DNA of 62,623 nucleotides, filler included, from Platydemus manokwari (Eukaryota): assembly GCA_037951405.1 (NCBI GenBank). It is 6 parts of 6 records of this genome, joined end to end, with 100 filler letters (N's around TTAATTAATTAA, not from the genome) between each part and the next. Parts side by side here need not be neighbours in the genome. Positions count along the whole stretch, not along the records: positions 30,876 to 41,987 come from JBBMOY010813314.1; 5 more parts are not named here. One strand, written 5' to 3'. Below the pieces are notes generated by a model. That model was not told the DNA's origin, made no database searches, and saw only the letters and a program-made list of their open reading frames with translations. Below are positions 1,669 through 42,087 of the stretch, piece by piece (position 1 is the first letter of the stretch; every line of letters starts with the position of its first letter). The translations under genes and the position numbers were made by a program.

Positions 1669-4600
1669 ATGTTGACTGAAAGCAGATTGTATTTATTATT
1701 AGAATAATACTTATACTGTAACTATGACCTTAAGGCAAGATTTTTAATAAAACTAAAAATTATAAATGTTTTCCTTTAAAATAAATTATGATTAAAATTT
1801 AATGTAATCTTATTAGAAAATCTTGTCAAGAAATTACTTCAGTTGAGGTGTGGTCAATTATTGGGGACTTAGTGAAAAGATATACTGCAGAGGGAGCATA
1901 TCATCGCTTGAAGCAAATGAATTGTCCTCTTCTCAAAACTAATAGTGTAATAATTTATAGATGATATTTTGCTATCTATTTTGAATATTAATTTCAGACA
2001 ATTTTCTATGAATTCTTATTCCAAAGCGGTGCTATCAACTTAGATAGTTTGGATCAAGTATACCAATTATCGTTTCTCGACACGTTCTCATTCGATAACT
2101 GGTATCGTTCGTTTCCTATTAATCAATTTCTCAACGGGGTGAAATCGCTCACCACCAACTTATTTTCTCCACATTCACTCGATTCTTGTGTCAATTCGAC
2201 AGCATTCGAAAAATTGACAAGTAGTTTATCAGAAGTTCTCAGACAAAAGAATACCATAAATGTTGATATTTCGCAGTCTTCTATTGATAAATCTTGTGAT
2301 TCAATAATCCAAGAAGCCCTAATGAAAATGAAATCCGATTCGAATCATTTTACGACAACAGACAAAGTAAATTTTCACATTTTGTATTGAGGCATTATTT
2401 ATAATTTATTAAAATATTTTATGGTATAATCTATATGAAAAATAAATATAAAATATTATAAATTTTTTTACCAAAACTGTATTGATTTTTCAAATTTTAA
2501 ATTAACATCAATCGATAATAAAATTTGAAAAGGTTTCTTTGGATTTGAATTTGAATATAATTTGATTTTAGTATTGCTTATCGGAAATAACTAAAGTATA
2601 ATTTATACGGTGTCAGTTTCTTCATAACCTCTAAGGAAGTTTCTAGAGATAAATATGGCATTATAAACCTTTAAGGATCTTTCCTAAAATTGATGATCAA
2701 CCAGGGAATTTTTAATCCTCTTTAGTTGTTCATTCGTTTTTAAAGTTGAAATATAATACAATTTTGAACGTATGATATGTTTTATAAATGATATATTTTT
2801 ACTTTTAGTTCTCAAACCTACATTTTGTTATTGTTTCGATATTTTATTTCGATCAATAGGATAAAAATACTGAAATAAATCTCATGAGTGTGCTTATAAT
2901 TGTTTAAGGGACTCTGATTTCGGATGAAATTTGAATTTTATTTAAAAAGTACATTTGGATGGATTTTCCATTTTAAAAATATATAATTTTAAAACCATCT
3001 TTGTAATTGAATTGTTAACTGAGCTGTAAAATTTTGCATATTTTATAATATATTTTTGTAGATCCCGTGTTGTACTTATTAAATATTTGTAAATCGGAAG
3101 ACGTGTTTCTATAATACGAGTTTTGCATTATCATATTATTTATTGAAAAATCTGATAAAATCTCATTTGCAAATGTTATTTATATCTCAAATTATTATGC
3201 ACGGAACTGAGCATTTTATAATTACATTTAAAGTCAATTCAAATTTTCAAGGTGGGCTAAATTAGATTTGTCAATAATTGATATTATTTTTTAAATAGCT
3301 ATTAGTTTCTGTTCTAAAGTTTTCATTGTGATTTATCACAGTGTATTATTTAAGCTGTAGTCAAGAAAATTCCAAAATGGCTTCATAATTTGAAGAAATT
3401 GTCATGCATTTTAAGAATTTTCAAATTACACAGCATTTTCTTCTAATTGATTTTATTCGATATGTGGTGTGAATAAGATATTGTTTGTAGATAATTTCAT
3501 AGGAAAGCTACTTTATAAGAGTGTTATTTATTATAAATAATTTAGTTATGTTGTAATTATACAATCATTGGAATTTATACTTCACTAACGGTTTTTTGGA
3601 ATATTTGATTTTTATTTTTCTCTCGCAGAAAATTACTTTTCTACATAATATTTTTAATAATTTGAATTTGATACAAATTGTGTAAGAGTTATTCAGTCCA
3701 AATAATTGCCTTTTCATTTTAATAAAAAATATCGGCTTAAGTTAAGAAAAGGGATCCTATATTCAAAATTTTAATATGTTGAGTGAATAGGTAAAATTTA
3801 TAAAGTTCATGTAATTATATTCTTTAGAAACATTTTGAATTTTTTATTTAAGTACTTAAGCAAAATTTTAGTTGTTTAAAATCAAATATAAAATACACTA
3901 GAGCTTCAAAAATTTATTTTTTGAAAAACGGATAAAAGTAGGTCGAATTACAATTTATTGAAAATTAACGAGAACCAGTTTTTTAACATTAGAAGCAAAT
4001 GGAAAGATATTTTCAACTTTTACAATTATTTTATAAAAAAAGCAATGATATTATTAAACATGTTTGTAGTTAACTAACTCAATTTATAATTATAAAATTT
4101 AAATTAAAATGCTCAAATAATCATAGAGATCTGTTATGATTTATGTTTGATCCTTATTAGACATCCTAAAAAGTGAAACATTAACTGAGTTATACCAATA
4201 ATTCAAACATCATAATTGTAAATAAAATTTAGTTATAACATTATCTCGCGCGCGAAAATTCATTATTACGAAAATAGGTCAAAAGATCCCTTTTTTAAAC
4301 TTAAACTAAAATATTTAATTCGAAATAATTCTTAAAAATACACCCAAACTATTTCTCATAATTAAAACACATTTAGAAATTAATCTTGTTGTATGGACAG
4401 TTCACAATAATTAATTGATAAGATTTTCTAAAAAAATACATTCGGATTGAACAGAATTAATCATATCAAACGAAAAGAATAATAATGACAATTCAATGAT
4501 TAGTTTCGTTAAAAACTTTTCTTTGAATTTATGGTAAACATGCCAATCATCGGTGTTTCAGAAGTATTACATAAGAGCTGGGAAATATAAAAATAATCAA

Positions 4601-9640: not shown

Positions 9641-12475
9641 ATGATACCTCCATCATTTTCTGATTTGGGTAGGGCAGCAAAAGATCTTTTTGATAAAAAG
9701 TTCGCAGTTGGTCGTCTAAATTTTGAATGTTTTTCAAATAATGGTTCAAAAACTGTATCAATCGATGCGACATACAATAACAAGTCGAAGGCATTGACAG
9801 GAGATTTAGAAACAAAACATTTTATTTCTCCCGGTGAAATTTATTCTCAAAGATATTATGAATTATTGTCAACCAAATAGGAATCAGTATTATGCATAGA
9901 TGGTCCACGAAAAATGTCTTAACTACAGAAATTTCTAAAAATTATCAAAACACAAAAGGATTACGAAATGTCGCAATATTTAATTTTCAATCAGATACGG
10001 GGTATTTAATGATTTTGTGGCCGAAAATAATAAGTAATTTTGAATTATCAGAAAAAAGTCTTTCAGATCAAAGAATTCTTACAAACGAAACAATTTAAAT
10101 TTCAACGGCGACATTATTTTTGATTCATATAAGCCAGATATTAATTTAAATATGGTATTAGGGTATGCTTTGTTTTTTATGATATCATGGAAATAAAACA
10201 CTTATCTAGCAAGAAATAATTGATATGGGAATTATAATTTTAACTTTAATATTAAATCGATGAAAAAAATCAATTTTCATATCTATTAATTATTGTATTA
10301 AATTTCATTTGTATATTTAATCCTTTTCTTGCCTATACCGATATTTGTTTCATTTATTAATTTCATGCTGTTAAATTGGGATTCTCGAAAGTATTGTGGG
10401 TTGGATAGACATAAAACGTTGGTCAATTATAAAATCAACAATCGACTTGTCCATGGATAGTAATTTAGCAGGTCATTTGCTAAAGGAAAATTAATTGAAA
10501 ATATTTTGATGTCTTGCAAAACCAAATAAAATGTTGACAATGGTTGTAGTGGAGTATAATTGAAGAATTTTAATATTGATTTTTAATTGATAAATACTAT
10601 TACGAAAAAGATCAAATTAAAAAAAATTACTTGAATGCCAACCATCATTTAATCATCCAATTATTTACTTTGTGTAAATTAATAACGATACTAATAAATT
10701 TGTGCTCTTAATGTCATGACAACAATGACCTACTTTTACAATGGTTGAATTTCTCGACAAAGTAGAACAAATATTTAGTGAATACGAATTTGTGATTGAT
10801 GTGTAACATTTCCACTTGATTTTAAAATCAATAATTTTTTATTCATATTCTCATCATTATTAATGACGTGTTGATCATTTTTATTTATAAAATCAACAGT
10901 TAATTTGTCCATCCATTGTAATTTTCCAAGCCATTTTCTAAAGCAAAAATAATAGAAAATATCTAAATGTGTTGCAAAACACAATAAAATGTTGCCAATA
11001 ATTGGTAGTGCAATACAATAGAAGATTATTGATTTTTAGTTGATAAATACAATTACGAAAAGATCAAATTAGAAAAAATAATAAATACTTGAATGCCAAC
11101 CATCATTAAGATTATTGATTTTTATTTCTAATTTCATAATTCAATCTACCAATTATTTATTTTTGTGTAAATTAATAACGATAATAATGAATTTGTGCTC
11201 TTAATGTCATGGCAACAATGACCTACTTTCACAATGGTTTAATTTCTCGACAAAGTAGAACAAATATTTAGTGATTACGAATTTGTGATTGGTGTGTAAT
11301 ATTTCGATTTAAATCTAAAATTAATAATTTTTTATTCATATTCTCATCTTTATGTTTAACGTGTTGATCATTATTACTTTTTTAAAATGGAAAACGTAAT
11401 AATCACCATTGGAAATATATCTGGATTTAATATCATCTAAGCAATTATAAGAATTTTTTAAACAAATCTGACTAAATTTGATTGGCTTAATCGATGGTAA
11501 AAAGATTTTGTGTGATTTACAAGAAACAGAAAAATATTGACATTTTAAATTGGAATAATTATGGCTTGTGACAAAACTGTTTATAATCAAATGTGATTCT
11601 AAGATTATTATTTGGTTGTTTGTGATGTTAAGCTATTTTTTATTAACCCGACTTACTGTTTTTCTGGCTCGAATGAGGTGATATTAACCGTGTTCGATAG
11701 TTTATCCATCATATTATCTAGTGAATCGATAATAAACCAGTGACATCCGTATTTAGAATAACGAAATTAATAAAAATCAAACTAAGGACTGAGTATAGAG
11801 TTTTGATAGGGTTGAGTAAGACAAACTATTGGAAGAATTGTAACTAATTTATGAGCTATAAGTAGCGGTTCATATCATCAAAAGAGTTTCACATCATCAT
11901 TTGCTTATGAAATATTTTATTATAATTATTTTTTATTGAAGTAGACTGTTTAAAAAGTTTACAACGACCAATTATTTCTAGATCTGTTTATTTGAAATCT
12001 TATCTTGTTGGAGTTGATTGCAATATCGATGTTAACAATCGAACAATTCGTAATCATTCATTTGCTATCAGATATAAAAGTAAAAACATTGATTCTGTGA
12101 CAACCTTGAAAGATTTCTCATTGGTTAATATATACATTTATCAGAAGATTAACAACCGAACTGAAATCGGTGTTCATGTCGCATATGATAACAATTTCAA
12201 ACGGAATAAATTTGGTGTTGCTGGCAAATATAAGATTTCTCAATCGAATCATTCTTTTATCAAAGCCAAAATCAATCAAGATAAATTGATTAATTTAGCT
12301 TATGGTTGTAATATCAATGATAGTGAGTTTCTATCGTTGTGAAATGTGCGTATGTTGTATTAATGGCATTGTATCATGTTAAGGATTACAATTGACTTTA
12401 TCTACTGAAATCGATGGCCTCAATATCAATCGAGGATTACACAAATTTGGTGTTGGAATTTCTTACGAATTATAA
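9641..12475 (+). CDS. VDAC: Voltage-dependent anion channel (mitochondrial porin), ~285 aa, divergent
   Basis: Exons 9641-9833, 9881-10001, 10052-10162, 11982-12322, 12384-12475 total 858 nt in frame. N-terminal helix MIPPSFSDLGRAAKDLFDK; WST.N.LTTEI; DTGKKS..K.SYKR; KAKIN...LINLAY; C-terminus LTLSTEIDGLNINRGLHKFGVGISYEL*. Confidence 0.93.
10425..11372. repeat. Diverged tandem duplication of a ~460-bp unit in VDAC intron 3
   Basis: Copies at ~10425-10880 and ~10885-11372 share long blocks, e.g. TACTTGAATGCCAACCATCATT, TTTGTGCTCTTAATGTCATG(A/G)CAACAATGACCTACTTT and TTTCTCGACAAAGTAGAACAAATATTTAGTGA. Confidence 0.9.
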
Positions 12476-27000: not shown

Positions 27001-27564
27001 AAACAGTATCTTATAAAGTATAATAATAGACACAATTTTTCAGAATTTAGTTTTCAAATAATTCAATGAATAAATTAGACATTGATAATACTTTATTTAT
27101 TAAATGGATAAGATCATTTAAATTTATCAATTAATTAATTTAATTGATTTAATTAATGGAGTTATTCAAAATTTCGCATCGCATATATTAATCAACAATG
27201 ATTGGATAACAAATTTAATTTTTCTTATAGCGAGTTTAAATTGAACCAGTCTAAATTGACGAGTAATCATTTATCGTCAAAATACACACGATTAACTCGC
27301 TTCTGAAACGGACGTGCCTCGAGGACACGACGAGTAAGGAATATGCGATATCTAACAGTTTAACACGAACTGAACAACACACATGCACAACACACGCGAA
27401 TACTCGCCCGGTATTGTCGGTATACACACAATTATGCATTTGACGACATATTTAAAATAAAGATCTATTAGCGCACAAATTAATTGCCAACCGTATTCTA
27501 ACGACAATCATCAATAATTTGAAATTTATAATTATCAAAATTAAAAACATAATTATTTTAATCA

Positions 27565-30376
27565 ATGAATAATACCGATTCAAATCGTCAAGGAGTTTAT
27601 CTTCAGTCACAGTCTTCTCACCAACTCCTTGGATCATTTGAAAATCCAATTCTTAATACCCAACATATTAAAGAAGCCTCAACATCAGGTGTACAGGAAT
27701 TAAAATCTGAAATCCATTATTCATCAGAATTTTCGACAGATTATTTGCCAATAGTTACAGAAATGTATCCAACAAATTTTCTAACAAACTCATATGAACA
27801 TCAGCAATTCGTTAATCCATCGACATTTAATTACTTTAATTCCAATAAAAAGCTTTGTGGCATCTTATCATCAACAATGAACAATTTCACAGACTTGGAC
27901 AGAATTGATTATGCGAGAATTAACGAGATAAGTAATTTTGATCAATATTATCAACCTTATCAGAATCTAAAAATCGAACATCAGAGGGACAGTAATACAT
28001 TGAATCATTTTTCATCATTGTCTCGTCAGATAGATCTGGTAAATGCAGATTCGAATACCATTTCTCAATACATTCAGTCAACACAATCATTTAACAACCA
28101 AATGAACAACAATGCGGACAGTCGAAGCGCAATAAGTGCCAACAGTCCAAGTTGCTATGAAAACAGTGAGATAAAACCAAACGAATTACCTATAATTGTA
28201 TCAGCGCCATCACTATCCGAAGATTGTGAACTGAATGAAAAAACTGCTGCAAACAAGCGTGACGATATAGATTTCGACAGTAATCAAAGTGACTCTCCAA
28301 GAAAACCTATAAAAGAAGTGACACCCAGTCTAGAAACTGTTAATAATAAAGAAGATGAAATAAAAAAGGAAAAGTCAATTGAACGAGAAAGCGATGATAT
28401 TGATAGGATGAAATCAGAAAAATCTCTAAAATCATCAAGTAAAAAATTATTGAGTCTAAAACCTGTTTCAACCTTCATTTCAGCAGCGAAGCGTAAATCA
28501 GAAAAGCCAGAGCAGTCATATATTGCGTTAATAGTAATGGCCATTCAAGCTTCTCCAATCAGAAAATGCACTTTAAGTGAAATATATAATTATCTACAAC
28601 AGAATTTTCCTTTCTTTCAAGGTCCATATCAGGGCTGGAAAAATTCAGTCAGGCATAATCTTTCTTTAAATGAATGCTTCATAAAATTACCAAAAGGTAA
28701 GTTATACTAAATATAATATAAATTATGATTATAATCATTTGATTCGATTCTATCAATTTCCTGCTTGTATTTTTGTATTAAAATGACATTTAAAACATGA
28801 TATAATTCGAGCGGAAATACCGTTAGTTACAGTAATATTCAATCTACCATTATTATGTATAACTGTCTGAATTCATTGAACGGAAATTGCAACCAGTCAA
28901 CCATAATGGTCTTTGTTCGGCAATTTGCGATAACTAAGAAACATAAAGAAAATAATATTTGTACATTAAATTTTTTTTTAAGAAATCGAATAGAATAGCA
29001 CGATGCAATTTTATCAAACAGGAATCCATACCATATTCTGATCATATGAGAAATTCTATAAACTCATCAATATTCAATGCTACTCTAAGACAATTGATTA
29101 GCATAACCTTGTCCACACCTATTTTAGTATTCAATATTGTGATTTACTTTAATAACAATACACAAATGATAAAGCGTTCGTCGTCCAAAAATCAAATAAT
29201 ATTTAATATTTTAAATTGTTTATTTTACTTTTATTGAAATGTGCTTAATGGTTATGTAATAAAATACACATTTAATTTAATTTCATCATTAGGTATGGGA
29301 AGGCCGGGAAAAGGCCATTATTGGACTATAGATCCTACAGCTGAATTTATGTTTGAAGATGGAGGTAATAGAAGAAGGCCTAGAGGATTTAGAAGGAAAA
29401 TTTCAACCAGAAGTAACTCAGGATCAGCATTCTCCAAGTCGCCGTATACAGTAACGTCAGTGTCTTACAATAACAGTAGTCCAATGATGTTTTCACCATC
29501 TAATGTTCGCTGTAATCAATTAGGTAGTAATGTGTCTTCGTGCAATTCAATGAATAATCTGAACGGAACAGTAGCAGACAATATGCCTCCACTTTTTGAT
29601 ATGTATCATCAAAGTTTTGGGCTTTTTTCTCAGCCGGAAAACATTGATCCAATGAAAGCCGTTATATCGAACTACCCACAACATGATTCTGGATTTTTTA
29701 TAGATTCATTTTATCCTCACTCATCATCAGATTCCAGTTTTGGTAAACAAGAAATTCCAGCAGCTTCATCTCTATTCCATACTAACTTTATGTCTAATAC
29801 AATAAGTCAGACTTCTAATTCCTCGAGTATATCCCATCCACCTATATCGCCATATGTCTCAGGAAACTCTCGAAATAGCCCCTTATTCACTTCACTTTCT
29901 TCGTCATTACAAACTCAGAATATTACAGATTTAAAGATTTCTGATCAATCATCTTTTCATTCTCCACAATCATCAACTTCCTCCACAGCCGCAGCAGTTG
30001 CAGCTGCATCACTTTATTCAAATTGGTTTCCAAGTGGACCAACAGATGCAGCAAAATATTTCATGGATCATTCCTCAGAACCCGATAGAATAGACAATTT
30101 ATATTCCTCAAGCGCTTTGCCAAGATTATCCGTAGGTATTCATGGTGAAAATGATGAAATCATTGAAAGAAGTGAATTTTTTATTTTATTTTGATATTGA
30201 ATATTTAAAACATTCAAACAGATCCTATGTATCAACCATACATGACAGATTGTCTTTTACCTTACCTACCATCAAGTCAAATGTTTAATATAGCAAACAT
30301 GACAGATGTTCGCTCCAACAGTGGTTTAAATATGGACAACACTGACAGATCCATTTGGGTTCACAATAAATTTTGA
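27565..30376 (+). CDS. foxF: Forkhead box F transcription factor, ~721 aa
   Basis: Exons 27565-28696, 29293-30171, 30222-30376 (2166 nt, in frame). The forkhead domain [49 protein letters not shown]|[33 protein letters not shown] is diagnostic of FoxF. Confidence 0.95.
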
Positions 30377-34249: not shown

Positions 34250-35250
34250 GAAAAAGACCATTTGATACTTTGTAAACTATCAGAACAGTTACAGAAATGT
34301 CTTAGAAACTTACAATAGCACAACTTTTAAATTAATTAATGTTCTGCTTCAGTACTCATTTTGCATGTGCCTAACAAGCTGCTAGAATTACATGTGGCAT
34401 TGATAAACGGAAATTTCTTCTTTCCGCAAAAATCTTGTCAAATATATCATCCTCAAAAGAAAAAATTGTTTTGTTTTACTTTATAAGTTTTTCAATATTT
34501 ACACAATGCTCACAACTTTTAGATCACTCATTCAATAAAACCTTACGTGACCTGAAATTTAATCTTGAAATTTTTGATTCATTTGATCTCATATTGAAAT
34601 CGGATTCATTAAATAGAGATAAATCTTATCCATCAGTTTTGATTTTATTTGTATTTTCCGTCATCGAAGATTTCTCTGGTAGACATTAGGGATGGCTTTT
34701 TATTCCTCAATCATTTAATTCATCTGAATATAAAACTTTCTGATTCTCTAATTGTAATTGTTTTTCATCTAAAAAGTTTAGGAGAAGCTTTTGATTAGAA
34801 ACCTGTACTTTGATTAAAATCCTGTAATGTCCAAAAATCGATGTTATATGCGAAGTATAGCTTTCATTTAAATGTTTCTAAAAATAATTAAAATAACATT
34901 CAATTCTCAGTACAGAATTTATTGATATTTCTAGATTCTCTTTCATAATTTAATTTGAGATCATTACAATATTGGTACTTTACTGTGATAAATATGTGCG
35001 TGTATGTGTTTAAGTCTGAATATATTTTTTGAAACTTTGCGAAAAATAAATATCAATACTATTTCTGGAAATACTTGATCTAGAAATAGCGTGAATTATT
35101 TTCAAGAGTCCACCTATTTTCAAATTGTGAAGATGTGGAAAATTTTCTTTCATCAACTAAAGAATACACCGAAGCAATGCAAATTCCTGAAAATTTGTAT
35201 GGCAAATTTCCATTAAGGGTTTTTCTAAACGATTTAAATTACACTAGCAA
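34250..35250 (-). pseudogene. Possible decayed spliced host gene or pseudogene next to the non-LTR insertion
   Basis: One minus-strand frame reads protein-like (NRLEKPLMEICHTNFQEFALLRCIL*..KHLNESYTSHITSIFGHYRILIK|MKKQLQLENQK..FEDDIFDKIFAERRNFRLSMPHVILAAC*) with intron-like gaps but about a dozen in-frame stops. Confidence 0.25.
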
Positions 35251-35304
35251 TTTATCTTGCCGAGATTCTTTGGATTAGAATTGCTCGTTTTTCCGTATCG
35301 ATAG

Positions 35305-36775
35305 TTAAACTCTCATATTGTAGTCGTTGTAGATATCTGATTGTATGCTCTTGATCAAGATAAGGATTTCACTTTTCGTTGTTCCATGTGGGTATTGTTT
35401 ATCACGAAAGCATCTTTCAGTAGAGTGCTGATGAGGAACCCAGCGATGACGGTGATCTGTAGCTTGTCTAGACTGATGTTGGCAAGCATTTTGTTGTTTA
35501 TAGGGTTCCAAGATTCAAGAAATTTAATACAGAGTACATCCAGTGTTGTTTCATACCTGTTTTTATTTTGATTTTTGCCGCTATTGTTCCATATTTTTCA
35601 AAGATCAGGAACCGATGTTTCTCAAAGATATCAACCGGGATCTTCATGTCGATGATATAGGTATGTATCTTGGCTTTATTCTTAATGATGAGATCCGGTA
35701 GCAATCTTGTATTTAGTTTTGGTGGGCTTGTATGAATATCGTTATCCAGTCCGGATGATAGTAAGCAGTTTCCTAAGTGGTTCAAATTGATTGAGTGTCT
35801 TTTTGTATCCAGTCCAGGTACCGCTGGACAGTGGATGAATTTGTGGCATCGTGGGTATAAGATTGATTTCTTTTTCTTCATGAAATACAGTGTGTAATTC
35901 AGTAATAATAGGTTGTTTTTGGCCAGATTCGTGAAAATCCAGATATCTTGTGAAAATTTTTTTGCAAGAGATGACTGGGTGAGAAGCAGTGAACCATTTA
36001 TTCTTGTTTTTTCTTGATGCAATATTCCATGAGGGACGTTTTGAATCCGATGCCGCCAGGTTTGGTAGTTCCATTTTTAGTATTTCTTTCGAGATATTCG
36101 ACGCATTTCTTGTCGAATGATTGTACTGATTCATTTTTATGGTTTGAGATCAGTTTTGTTGAATCCAGTTTGCTAATTTGTAATTGTTGAATTCGGAAGT
36201 GGAAAGGCAATCTCGAGTGCAGAAAAATACTGTAAGCCTGGAATTTTTATGAAGGATACAGTCTGAAGGCTGTGATCGCTTCAAAGTCTGTGATGATTGA
36301 TTCCAGGATGTGGTTGACCGGTGATCGATTGAGTAGACCAAAGGGCACTCCGAGATTGTCACTATCCATGATTTAGATGTGTTGATTTTGAGTAGAATGT
36401 CCGTTGCTTTATGAATAGGTTGATTCAGTCTGTTTTCGAAGTTCTTTTCAGAATTAGCAATGTTAACGATATAATAAATGCAGGCTGTGTTGAGAATTGA
36501 ATATCACACATTATGAGAGCCCCCGGCATACTGGCTGAGAAGCGTAGGAGAGAATCAATTGACAGGTAGAAGAGTGTCATTGACAAGGGGCATCTTTGTT
36601 TTACTCCGTGGTGGATTGGAATTGGTGGTGTGTTAAGCATTCCACAGGTATAAGTTCATTCGGAGTCCTGGTATATGGCATTGATCATTTCAATGTAATG
36701 AGTATTGTAACCCATTTTGTTAAGCGTATACTAGATAACCTCGTGTGGTAGGCTTGTGGAAGGCTTTTATGAATG
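35305..36775 (-). mobile_element. 5'-truncated, degenerate non-LTR retrotransposon with RT and REL endonuclease (R2/NeSL/R4 group)
   Basis: RT motifs KAF..LPHEVI..MGY..INAIYQ..GVKQRCPLSMTLF (GVKQGCPLS). The C-terminus has C..HC...KRH..., RLLPDLII, IIDMKIP and EKY, the RH/PD/D..P/KY signature of REL. Multiple frameshifts. Confidence 0.85.
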
Positions 36776-37512
36776 AATATGTGAAAATTATGTGAAATAT
36801 GTCGAACACAAATAAATACAGGAACCACGACAAGAATGCCAATACAGCCAATAGATATAATTCCAAAACCAATGGAATTCACAGCAATGGATATTATGGG
36901 ACCATTCCCAGAAACGACCCAAGGAAATCGATATAATTTAGTATTTTGTGATTATTTCACGCGTTGGCCAGAAGCTTTTGCGATGTCAAACCATAAGGCA
37001 GCAACGATTGCCCAGATATTCGTGGAAGAGATAGTGTTCCGGTATGGAGCACCGAGGATAATACTGACAGATAGAGGGAAGGATTTCCTGACCAATATAA
37101 TTGCGGAGATCTGTAAAATTTTCCTCGTAATGAAGTTGAATACCTTGCCATATAGACCTCAAACAGATGGCCTGGTAGAAAGATTCAATAACACTTTGAG
37201 AAATATGTTAGCTTCTTTTACGAGCACAAATCAGGGTAGGGGATCGGGTATTAGTAGATACCCCTCAACCGGTAAAAGGACTCTCTCCAAAATTGCAGAA
37301 TACATTTAAAGGACCGTACACTGTGGAGAAAGTGACGCCTACTAATTTACAATTAAAAAGAAAAGGACCGGCTGGACCATTGATAGTCCATGCAAATAGA
37401 TGTAAGCGAGTAACAGTAGTAGAACCGAGCCAACATGCGCTACGTTCCAGGACAAGAACAGTAGCAACAGTAAATACCGGAAAAGGAATGAAGTTACACA
37501 AATGGATTTTGA

Positions 37513-38268
37513 ATGCCATTGTGTATATTAGCATTGATACTAACTAAGGAAGCGAAAAAGGATGTAGAGAATCCGAAAATGCCCGAATTCTACTTCGAAA
37601 TAGAGGCACAGAGAATCACGGTGCATTGTGATTGCGACAATGATCCGCTTGTGTCAATGGCCTTATTAATAAGAGGAGGAAATAGAGCCGAAGTTTATCT
37701 AGGAAAACTTAGGAATAAGGTTTCATTTAATATATTAAGATCGTCATGAGTTTACTGGTTTGAAGCAATGGTTTCAAGCGAAAGTAACCGTAGGCGGAAA
37801 ACTAGACAGAATACAGAGTGAAAACAAGGTGCAAACGCGCACCAGTAAAGATAAAGAAAACTTAATCTGGATTATGGAACCCAGAGAGAAATTACACAGT
37901 GCAGATTCATATGGGGAATATTGCACAGACGTTGGATGAGAAAAACAGGAGATATGACATGACACTGGAAGAAAGGAGACCCATAAAAGCTCATATAAGC
38001 TATAATCGGTGGAATAGAGTCAGCTAAATTTTGTATCGATCAATACGAGGAAGTAGAGATAACAGCACCAGGATTTAGTTTCAAACCCATTAAGAAAATG
38101 AAAGGATCTTTAAGATCTGTAGAACAATTAATGATGATAGGATTTGCAATGATAATCATTGTAATCCTGATATTAGTAGTAATGTTATTATCAAGAATGA
38201 TAATCAGCTACCGACAGCAACAAATGACATTAAACAGAGACAGGAGAACCTATGATACTAGATGTTAA
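37513..38268 (+). pseudogene. env-like type I membrane protein of the Gypsy element (frameshifted)
   Basis: Hydrophobic leader (KWIL/MPLCILALILTKEA), a Cys-containing ectodomain, a 21-aa transmembrane (TM) segment LMMIGFAMIIIVILILVVMLL (38128-38190), a basic tail, and a stop at 38266-38268. Confidence 0.6.
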
Positions 38269-38345
38269 AAGTACAGTATATAGTGTATATGCTGTATATT
38301 GTAAAGTATAAAGTACAGTACATAGTGTATCTACTGTATAAAGTA
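38268..38345. repeat. ~43-bp direct repeat pair between the env-like ORF and the accessory ORF
   Basis: AAAGTACAGTATATAGTGTATATGCTGTATA... / AAAGTACAGTACATAGTGTATCTACTGTATA... Confidence 0.7.
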
Positions 38346-38408
38346 AATTGTTTAAGTGTTTTTGTAAAACAAGTATTAACTAGTATTAATGAGTATTTAT
38401 ATTTTAGT

Positions 38409-39533
38409 ATGAGCCACAAACTCACAGAAACGAATGAAAATACCATGCCAAAGAGAAAAGGAATGTCGGTAAAGAAGACGGTAAAAGCCCGGATCTTTTA
38501 TGATAGAATAGAAGCCTTTATGAATGTAAACCATTGGAGGCAGATCAATATTACAAGGGTACAAGATAGACCCAATTGCCTCAGAGAAAAAGCGGTTGAA
38601 AATAGAAGAATGTTCCTAAGAGCAGAACCGCAGGAAGGCGAATTACCAATAAAAGGACTGATAGAGGACCAAGAAGAGATCGAGATCGATAACGTCCTCA
38701 CAGCAATTTGGATTATCGAACACCTCAACATGGCCTAATCGAAGAAACTGTTCAAGGAAGGACAGATTAACTGTTGGCCGAAGAGGAAGTAAATTAATTA
38801 TTGAGGGGAACAATAGTTATCGATCATAGAGTATGGGAAGGACTGATAGCTCTGAGAATTACTCCTGGTGACTTATATGAAGTGAGAGAATTATCAAATG
38901 CCCCAGTATTTGGAAAAGATGGCGTGAAGAGGAGTAACGGGAGATTCACCCTCCAAAGATCATCGAGCCATTATGTCAACTATGAGTTCCCAAGGAAGTT
39001 AAAAATCTACCTCGCCATAGAACCCAGGTGGACGGATCATAAGGAAGCAAGAGACGAAAGAAAATATGAGGAGGAAACCAACGTGAGAATCCCGTCCAAG
39101 AAAATAGAGCAACCAACGAAGAAAAAGTAGACTGGGAAAATTCAGACATTGTTATCCAAGGATAATCGGAGGAATCAAGAAGAGCCCATACCATCCACAA
39201 GAAGAGGGTCAGGAGAATGCCAACCCTCCACCAGTAAAAGGATCAAGTCGGAAGAAATAGATATAAACGAGGAAATGCTATGGGACACTCCAGACTCTGT
39301 AGAGATTCTGGATGAGGATGCACTATAATGGAAATACACAGAGGTCTTAACTTGGACAACCCAGAGTTAAAGGTCAAATACGAATAGCATACTTGCGCAG
39401 AGGAGGAAGTGGAGAAGTAATTTATCCCGGAAGACGAGGAGATGCCACTACAGGAACCCCAACCAGAAAGAAGCAGAGATAACAGAGAGGATACAGTTAT
39501 CGGGATTATACCCACGCAGGCTGCAGGCCTATA
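38409..39533 (+). pseudogene. Accessory ORF of the Gypsy element (~375 codons, disrupted), function unknown
   Basis: ATG at 38409 (MSHKLTETNENTMPKRKG..) continues through ORF pieces 38262..38738 and 38801..39130 and an acidic tail (..EDEEMPLQEPQPERSRDNREDTVIGIIPTQAAGL*). Same A-rich coding-strand bias as the pol gene. Confidence 0.55.
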
Positions 39534-39589
39534 AATTATAAATTGCATAATAATTATATAATAATAATAAATTAAAACAGGAAACCCAC

Positions 39590-40330
39590 ATTAATTAAAA
39601 CTTAGGCGTCTCGGCTCAATGATATTAATAATAACTGTAAATTTTTTTGGAAAACTGATTAAAAATCATTATTAATCCACGTTGCCATAGCCATCCGAAA
39701 TATAGTCATAGAAATTCAAATTTAAATGCAAATTGCCATGACAACGATGGATATTACTAAGAGAACCTCAAAATCAGAAATAAAATTAATCATGCGCCTA
39801 CATTCCAAATTCATATAAATACTGAAGTAAAATTCAGTATTTTGCCACAAAACTACGTAGTTCATAACGATTACAGATCCACTTCGAGATCATATTCGAG
39901 ATTATAAATTAAGATTTGAGATTACAATTCAGATTACAAATCAAATTCAAGACAACATTCGCAGCCAACTCAAGTAATAAACTAATTTCAGCAATTTCTA
40001 GTATCTGGCGACAATTGTTTACCTACTATTAAGCTCAATTATTAATTCAAAATGGTAAAAGTTCATTATTATTTTGCTCACCTGATATCATTCTCCGAGG
40101 AGATTTATTGTCAGTGAACATTAAAACCCTCACAAAATCGTAACAGAGTTTGTGAGTCTAAAATCAATACTTCTTTAGTTTATATACCGCAGTGGGGCGC
40201 CACTTAGTTCCCGCCGGCGGTTGTTATTTACTGATAAATCTTTAGGGCACAACAGCTTACTCCTTCTAACTTACAGCATAACACATTTGATAATATTTAT
40301 TATAATAAAGTATTTTGTTATTACATTATT
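39590..40330 (+). mobile_element. LTR-like non-coding segment (boundaries uncertain)
   Basis: X-box-like motifs at 39681-39694 and 39732-39745, TATAAATA at 39814-39821, short GAGATTA-type repeats, and AATAAA at 39976-39981, in U3-R-U5 order. Confidence 0.4.
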
Positions 40331-40896
40331 GTTCTTATTAATATTTATATAACTCATTTACACGCAACCTATTAATCTGTGAAGTTTCAGATATTGGTGG
40401 AAACACCAATCTCTGACTCACGGAAGCTCATTTAATTACATAGTAAATTATCGGTTGAAAAATCGTTGATTCACTATTAACTTACCACCAAACAAGTTTC
40501 CATCACAATCCCTCGAAGAAAAAATTGAAGAATTGGAACGCAAAGTGTTAGTAATTCCGGGAACCTCTAAGAAGATTCAAGCAAGCTCCGAAAAGAAAAG
40601 GTAATGGAAAGAAGCAAAGACGGAATTCGACCTCAGCGAAGACCCTCACCAACAAATTCAGGAAGATGGAGAAATATTTCAATTAGGCTATTTAGCCTTT
40701 TTCTGCAACAGAACAGGAGAAGACGTATCAAGAGGAAGAAGAAATGAGCGCGGAAATGATACCAGATAGACATTGTATTATAATTCTGATATTGATTATG
40801 ATTTTCATGGTGAATTAATAAATTTTGTAGTAGTATTTTGTAGTTTTATTTTATTGTTTTTAAAATTAGAAAATCTCAAATGTTTGAGAGGGCCAA

Positions 40897-41948
40897 TGAA
40901 GAGTCCACATTGTAAAAATATTAAAATAAAGATAAAAGTAAATAGCTAAGGAAAAAAGATAAGTTTAAAGATAGAGAAAATAAAATTTATTTTACTTAAA
41001 ATAAATAATAAAGTGGAAAAACTAATTTTAAAATTAAATTATTGATAAGAAAAATAATTATTTGAATAAATAAAGAAAATAAGGAATCTTAAATTATTAT
41101 TAGTAAATGGTAATTTGTTTAAATGAATTAAATAATTATTTAAGAAGGCAATTTTCCAAGAAAGTAATTATCGATCAATATCTGGTGACATTGATCCAAA
41201 TGTAGGAGTTGACTATACATGTCAACTCGGGTTAGAGAAATATGCTGCAAGTGGTGCGAGCACAATAACAGTATTTAAAGGCGGACTTGTGGTGAAAAAC
41301 TCACAATTAACTGGAACCAAAGCACAAGCCAGACAGAAGAGAATTTTGCAGTCAGAACAGAAACTAAGAAAATTGTCTCAGTCAGAACAGGATTTCCGAA
41401 CAAATTTTCAAAAGAAGAGAATTTCAAGATTAATTTCAATCAGATCGAGATTTAGAAGCAAGAAGTTACCAGATTTAGAATTCAGACAAAATTTACGTCA
41501 CGGTGAAAAGAAACAGTTACTAGGAGCAGGTTATATTTTTATTAATATTGAGTATTCGTGGACAGTGCTTCCTGAATATCGGTATTAGTATAAAGTAATT
41601 GTATAGAGCGTCTGTAATCCGTTACGCACGCTGGTATTTTGTAGTATCGGCAAGGAGTAGTTCCTTGGCCAGTAATCCAATATGGTGAAAAAGACTAAAT
41701 CCGTATTTGTAAACAGAACTTTATTGGGAGCTAGGCCCTTGGTGTAACTAATCAAAGTTGTAAATATAGTTATAGAAATATAACGTAGTGTGCAACTTTG
41801 TTTTGATTTTGGAGTTAGGTTATTACGAGGATTGATGAGCTCCACACTCGGTTGACCCAACAAAAAAATAATTGGTAGCAAAATTGATATAATGATTGGG
41901 GCTTTTTTGAGCATAATGATTAATAATAGAGAATGCTCGCTCGTTACA
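40897..41948 (+). mobile_element. Probable 3' LTR (~1.05 kb)
   Basis: Purine tract GAGAGGG at 40886-40892, then TG (40897; alternative start TGTAA at 40911). TATTTAAAG at ~41272, internal short repeats (CAGTCAGAACAG x2), and the end ...CTCGTTACA at 41948. Confidence 0.45.
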
Positions 41949-41987
41949 ATAATAATTAATTGACAATTAATAAATTAATAATTAATT

Positions 41988-42087
41988 NNNNNNNNNNNNN
42001 NNNNNNNNNNNNNNNNNNNNNNNNNNNNNNNTTAATTAATTAANNNNNNNNNNNNNNNNNNNNNNNNNNNNNNNNNNNNNNNNNNNN
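41988..42087. other. Artificial contig linker
   Basis: N44-TTAATTAATTAA-N44. Confidence 0.98.

Follow-up and report, generated by a model that had tools for sequence, protein, structure and literature searches.

The window, a 62,623-nucleotide stretch of Platydemus manokwari DNA (assembly GCA_037951405.1) made of six parts joined by filler, carries at positions 36785-38268 the decayed 3′ end of a Gypsy polyprotein gene, with nothing left upstream of the integrase core (Table 1). The Gypsy identity proposed in an earlier, sequence-only reading was upheld by the Pfam rve match, the integrase search and the tree: the copy combines rve with a GPY/F-type C-terminal domain and lies nearest to Gypsy integrases, which places it in Ty3/Gypsy (Metaviridae). 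Translation likewise recovered the integrase C-terminal piece (37212-37547) with its quoted linker motifs where that reading had put them, and the Y/H-x-x-L-R-S/P motif follows integrase in 17 of the 19 relatives examined. Measured against relative L001, ~95 codons are absent between the integrase core and the C-terminal domain. The order protease-RT-RNase H-integrase was seen in relatives, the parts before integrase being gone from the window copy, and a direct-repeat search detected no LTR pair in the window, where the 5′ part of the copy is lost. A single frameshift had been thought enough to join pol to the membrane ORF; four frame changes are needed, and the coding path is split over five pieces (37212-37547, 37513-37749, 37739-37939, part of 37866-38027, and 37999-38268). 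The window copy is thus a dead fragment that cannot produce the membrane protein.

Table 1. Features of the Gypsy copy and of the ORF behind it, in window coordinates.
Feature	Position	Strand	Basis and remarks
Integrase core of Gypsy element	36785..37237	+	Pfam rve, E 9.4e-11; 57-61% identity to L001-L003; tree; 5′ end of the surviving copy
Integrase C-terminal (GPY/F) domain	37230..37412	+	blastp against L001-L003, E 4e-18 to 6e-16; frame differs from that of the core
Basic linker motif	37434..37457	+	matches the Y/H-x-x-L-R-S/P motif trailing integrase in relatives
Internal signal-peptide-like leader	37482..37554	+	hydropathy of the best 13-mer 2.65 (break read as X); frame change near 37510-37516
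Likely FN3-like ectodomain unit	37555..37852	+	end-to-end profile score 17.6; frame change near 37737-37749
Remaining ectodomain (stalk or second degraded domain)	37853..38130	+	translation; frame changes near 37930-37939 and 37996-38024
Transmembrane helix	38131..38193	+	hydropathy 3.41
Short Arg-rich cytoplasmic tail and stop codon	38194..38268	+	sequence
Decayed accessory ORF pieces (38262-38738, 38693-38767, 38798-39130)	38262..39130	+	blastp E 0.002-0.09

Behind the integrase, the path encodes a protein whose signal-like stretch and one transmembrane (TM) helix suggest, by hydropathy, a type I topology. Its parts were found much as first described: the hydrophobic leader is present at 37516-37554, the Cys motifs, 21-aa TM helix and basic tail are in place, and the ectodomain, put at ~200 aa, comes to 193 aa and is stop-free when read through with X at the breaks. 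The first part of the leader aligns with the leader of L003, and the tail holds six Arg before a stop codon at 38266-38268. Among stop-free window pieces the TM helix (Kyte-Doolittle 19-mer) ranks 4 of 1886, and 1 of the 57 pieces of at least 80 aa; this rank, together with the same module in relatives, ruled out a chance ORF. In the window copy the ectodomain holds no more than 4 Cys and lacks an N-glycosylation sequon; of the 19 relatives examined, 18 have 2-14 sequons. Pfam searches of the three main ectodomain/TM pieces returned weak TM-type matches only and no fusogen family, and no family match for 37853-38130; a comparison of the first ectodomain piece with longer proteins gave 44 candidates, none at E 0.01.

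The family of the window copy is multi-copy in run X1, a possible source of the window, in which 2922 contigs align to 35000-42000. Contig depth, summed over contigs and so not a copy number, is unbroken over the integrase and membrane ORF (862-1769, bins 36872-38509), and contigs identical to the window copy have a depth of 15-41; none of the 8 contig rows listed bridges the junction between integrase and membrane ORF. In one X1 contig the flanks match but 96 dissimilar letters stand in place of 37746-37853, which hints at variation of the ectodomain among copies. Further downstream, in bins 39680-41317, summed depth climbs to 15,000, far above that of the coding part, and this segment could be part of an LTR or a repeat of its own; Ns occupy 41988-42087, just past the repeat-rich region. 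A 38-nt direct repeat, 87% alike, lies directly past the stop codon (38268-38347). On the other side, the truncated 5′ end of the copy is abutted by a decayed minus-strand remnant unrelated to it (35300-36780), which we take to be a non-LTR retrotransposon from RT-like and restriction-like endonuclease motifs picked out by eye; Pfam gave no match for pieces of this remnant. Elsewhere in the window are a host forkhead gene with two large ORFs (27562-30194; Pfam Forkhead), ~6.5 kb upstream in window coordinates, and two overlapping direct-repeat families of 120 and 218 nt (10427-11379).

Because the ectodomain piece matched nothing alone, relatives were sought through the integrase, with the integrase C-terminal domain (66 matches in a protein search), the integrase core and one long relative as queries. 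These relatives are metagenome-derived polyproteins with 51-61% identity to the window in the integrase core; a search of genome contigs found no relative. In a tree of the window and 64 of 171 matches (the best 42, then every sixth of the remainder, with published Smed integrases absent), the window integrase fell inside a 31-row clade with support 95/89. An 18-row tree gave the same clade (SH-aLRT 95), with the window adjoining P0192, and an AU test did not reject a placement of the window integrase with three rows from outside (p 0.238). Clade counts given below refer to the 30 relatives beside the window row, many of them near-kin. Two Gypsy polyproteins, P0041 and P0069, carry bacterial MAG labels (Flavobacteriaceae and Turicibacter), which likely reflect animal DNA in the bins.

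The anatomy of the relatives placed a fusogen elsewhere in the polyprotein. A gB-type env (Pfam Monjiviricetes_fusion) precedes RT in all 14 relatives with enough upstream sequence, the other 16 of the 30 having no more than 651 residues ahead of RT, not enough for gB to be visible. After integrase and in frame with it, a signal-like stretch together with a TM helix occurs in 21 of the 30; 2 show just one of the two and 7 neither. Both hydrophobic stretches are present in 13 of the 14 gB-carrying clade relatives. Hydropathy and this in-frame linkage support the proposal of a pol-linked type I membrane protein in an endogenous retrovirus-like lineage. The fullest example, L002, is a single stop-free frame of 3703 codons that includes all parts, in the order Gag with zinc knuckles, gB, proteases, RT, RNase H, integrase, leader, two repeats, stalk, TM helix and tail. 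The window copy is likely a decayed, divergent member of this gB-type errantivirus clade (GAG-ENV-POL), in which a gB-type env is known from the 14 relatives that reach far enough upstream; in the window copy it would lie outside what survives.

The post-integrase slot is variable. Two gB elements outside the clade, P0195 and P0196, fill it with an Ig domain (Pfam Ig_3) together with a signal-like stretch, and P0072, P0191 and P0193 with a short Cys-rich ectodomain and a TM helix, as judged by eye. P0185 has gB and no hydrophobic stretch after integrase, and several gB elements outside the clade stop soon after integrase; the module is therefore not always needed. In L003 (4805-5107) and P0070 (residues 66-155), a second signal-FN3-TM module lies in the same frame between env and pol, so that the module can occupy two places in one polyprotein. 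Extra retropepsin-like domains occur between integrase and membrane module in P0002, P0003, P0013, P0015, P0190 and others, joined in P0013 and P0190 by ankyrin repeats. In another lineage, P0039 carries, fused behind integrase, a chromodomain and a region resembling rhabdovirus G (weak Pfam matches). Behind the polyprotein, L001-L003 carry an exonuclease-like ORF, with RNase_T matches in those of L002 and L003, to which the window ORF at 38262-39130 is likely related: when the 1886 window pieces were compared with a three-sequence profile, two of its pieces came first, collinear and weak at E 0.23 and 0.26. L001 also has a RING-finger ORF (2684-4135) between polyprotein and exonuclease-like ORF.

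We modelled the two-repeat region of L002 with an 11-row alignment and obtained two seven-stranded sandwiches (pLDDT 86.7). Foldseek and VIA-align listings for this model were headed by FN3 proteins, with Z up to 10, and one L002 domain superposed on an FN3 structure with an rmsd of 2.5 over 82 residues. No named viral fusogen appeared among the 50 viral structure matches listed, which were FN3-type, tail and unnamed proteins. At the sequence level, all 33 matches listed in a PDB profile search were FN3-containing chains (best E 0.01), Pfam fn3 matched 2 of 11 members (best E 0.003), and a 22-unit profile recognised the repeat in six further proteins absent from its training set. The L002 post-integrase ectodomain is thus predicted to adopt an FN3 fold.

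Standard comparisons of the window's own ectodomain with this repeat were negative. A local HMM run against 1886 window pieces gave the ectodomain piece an E of 7.2; with the X read-through string it scored 3.8 bits against a background best of 10.1, and with 34 units 2.9 bits against 10.2. Probabilities from hhalign did not exceed 0.1%, and pairwise alignment of the window ectodomain to the ectodomains of 13 relatives reached z of at most 2.2. An end-to-end profile alignment, a custom test designed once these three standard methods had come out negative, gave a window z of 4.3, compared with 3.8-7.6 for eight held-out members. One shuffle in 2000 reached the window score of 17.6; none of 3000 natural windows did, nor any of the 5330 other read-through strings. 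P0192, the nearest tree row, scored 19.3, Ig-type and Cys-rich tails scored 5-11, and the reversed window sequence reached z of at most 0.6. The alignment sets window Cys on conserved Cys and Leu on conserved Leu and requires a 10-column gap. Over 12 settings z ranged from 1.7 to 5.3 with 34 units and from 1.2 to 2.9 with 22 units. A low-confidence single-sequence model of the first ectodomain piece (pLDDT 48) has four strands where the profile places them. On the strength of this one custom test, the window ectodomain is probably FN3-like.

Our leading reading, held tentatively, is that the post-integrase protein is a second, FN3-like surface protein and attachment partner of the gB-type fusogen encoded upstream, not a fusogen itself. 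We prefer a second surface protein to a short env because the clade's fusogen lies upstream of RT and the module is predicted to fold as FN3 in a relative; the same two observations favour the option of an accessory glycoprotein raised in the sequence-only reading and speak against its options of an env or an internally deleted env. It is unlikely that the window family shares the slot of its relatives and fills it with a cassette of some other, non-FN3 kind. The uniformly negative standard homology tests on window pieces would fit such a cassette, as would the Ig and Cys-rich domains that other elements carry there, but the end-to-end score stands above the natural and window controls and above the Ig and Cys-rich tails, collapses on reversal of the sequence, and is exceeded by that of the nearest relative in the tree. 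A short stand-alone fusogen, an internally deleted env or a FAST/sORF2-like protein mediating cell-to-cell spread is highly improbable. The protein has a predicted type I topology and lies right after pol, the position of env in many Gypsy elements, and short TM ORF3s of rotifer elements have been suggested to be fusogenic in the part of PMC5408684 consulted; against this, Pfam matched no fusogen, the clade fusogen sits upstream, and the L002 module matches FN3 and not fusogens. A truncated env was rejected on the 193-aa ectodomain, compared with ~530 aa for the clade gB, the lack of a fusogen family match and the upstream gB. A FAST/sORF2-like fusogen was rejected on ectodomain length (193 aa, compared with ~30 in that group as described in the consulted part of PMC11952523) and on the absence of an N-terminal acylation motif, the window protein having an internal leader and no myristoylated glycine.

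It is also possible, if doubtful, that the element captured a receptor-like protein that acts on the host cell and has no part in entry. There it might serve as a decoy, modulate signalling by cytokines, growth factors or adhesion molecules, or block re-infection. The nearest folds are receptor and adhesion ectodomains (LAR, contactin, Dscam, Tie2, gp130), the same elements carry further cargo directed at the host (ankyrin repeats, a RING ORF and an exonuclease-like ORF), the slot holds differing domain types, and some gB elements do without the module. The tails of the relatives, at 16-116 aa, show no common signalling motif by eye, and a single frame with gB and Pol would fix the amount of the protein relative to particle proteins, both of which argue against a host modulator. 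Ig and Cys-rich domains in the same slot are compatible with attachment and with host modulation alike.

Env-carrying flatworm Gypsy elements have already been published (PMC13524379, PMC6431247, as consulted in part), so the lineage, thought undescribed in the sequence-only reading, is probably not new. Flatworm errantiviruses are described as GAG-ENV-POL elements with a gB-type env; like the Platyhelminthes HSV/gB-type errantiviruses (Smed_errantivirus_1-6 and others), the window relatives carry gB-type env before pol, and their env resembles by eye the published Schmidtea Smed_errantivirus_1 and _2 env rows in the consulted portion of the supplement (PMC13524379). Fibronectin, FN3, immunoglobulin and accessory proteins all go unmentioned in the main text of that paper. 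We found no printed description of a post-integrase FN3/Ig membrane module; Grohme 2018, Repbase, and the figures, repository and most supplement rows of PMC13524379 may annotate it. In rotifer Vesta/Juno, a short Cys-containing TM ORF3 and a DEDDy exonuclease ORF follow pol, as here; those ORF3s differ in being separate ORFs with no fold assigned, and we found no mention of fibronectin or immunoglobulin in the consulted part of PMC5408684. The sORF2/FAST-like proteins of the MDG1 group are likewise non-env retrotransposon membrane proteins proposed to act in cell-to-cell spread and sometimes encoded downstream of pol, but they are 63-107 aa long with a ~30-aa ectodomain, mostly myristoylated, and encoded as a separate ORF in elements without env, according to the sections of PMC11952523 consulted. 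The giant planarian Gypsy Burro/GYPSM1 has a single very long ORF in which env sits between gag and pol without a change of frame, and its ankyrin and ubiquitin-like cargo occurs in some window relatives as well; compared by description, section 7 of PMC6431247 describes no FN3 or post-integrase membrane protein for it. Pfam gave no match in L002 and L003 to the BIR, BCL2 or MATH domains that mark the Burro ORF.

How a second surface protein might be made follows from the general processing of viral polyproteins, which is the basis for the ER crossing, cleavage and one-to-one output proposed here. In the order seen in relatives, one open frame would give rise to Gag, gB-type Env, protease, RT, RNase H, integrase and the membrane module. 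The polyprotein would cross the ER membrane for gB and again after integrase, where the internal leader would send the ectodomain into the ER, and signal peptidase together with the element's protease would free the membrane module from Pol. gB, Pol and the second surface protein would then be made one-to-one, and the last would help particles or infected cells to bind target cells. Its most likely use would be attachment for gB-driven entry or cell-to-cell spread. Herpesvirus gB, a class III fusogen, works with gD and gH/gL and depends on these separate receptor-binding glycoproteins, which offers a working analogy rather than evidence of homology to gD or gH; the partner candidate here differs in being FN3-like and fused to Pol. 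More broadly, and with real doubt, we consider a two-protein entry scheme resembling that of large enveloped viruses, in which a single membrane-threading polyprotein would supply a class III fusogen before Pol and, after integrase, a swappable, host-captured receptor-binding protein (FN3, Ig or Cys-rich) that would set the cell type entered.

Entry by gB-type errantiviruses is described as unexplained, herpes gB needing partners (PMC13524379, as consulted in part). The post-integrase module is a concrete candidate for the missing entry partner of gB-type elements, encoded in one frame with gB and Pol and carrying receptor-like domains that vary by lineage. Should its target be host signalling, it would still be an unreported type of retrotransposon cargo. 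The value of the window copy is that of a divergent witness of the post-integrase module.
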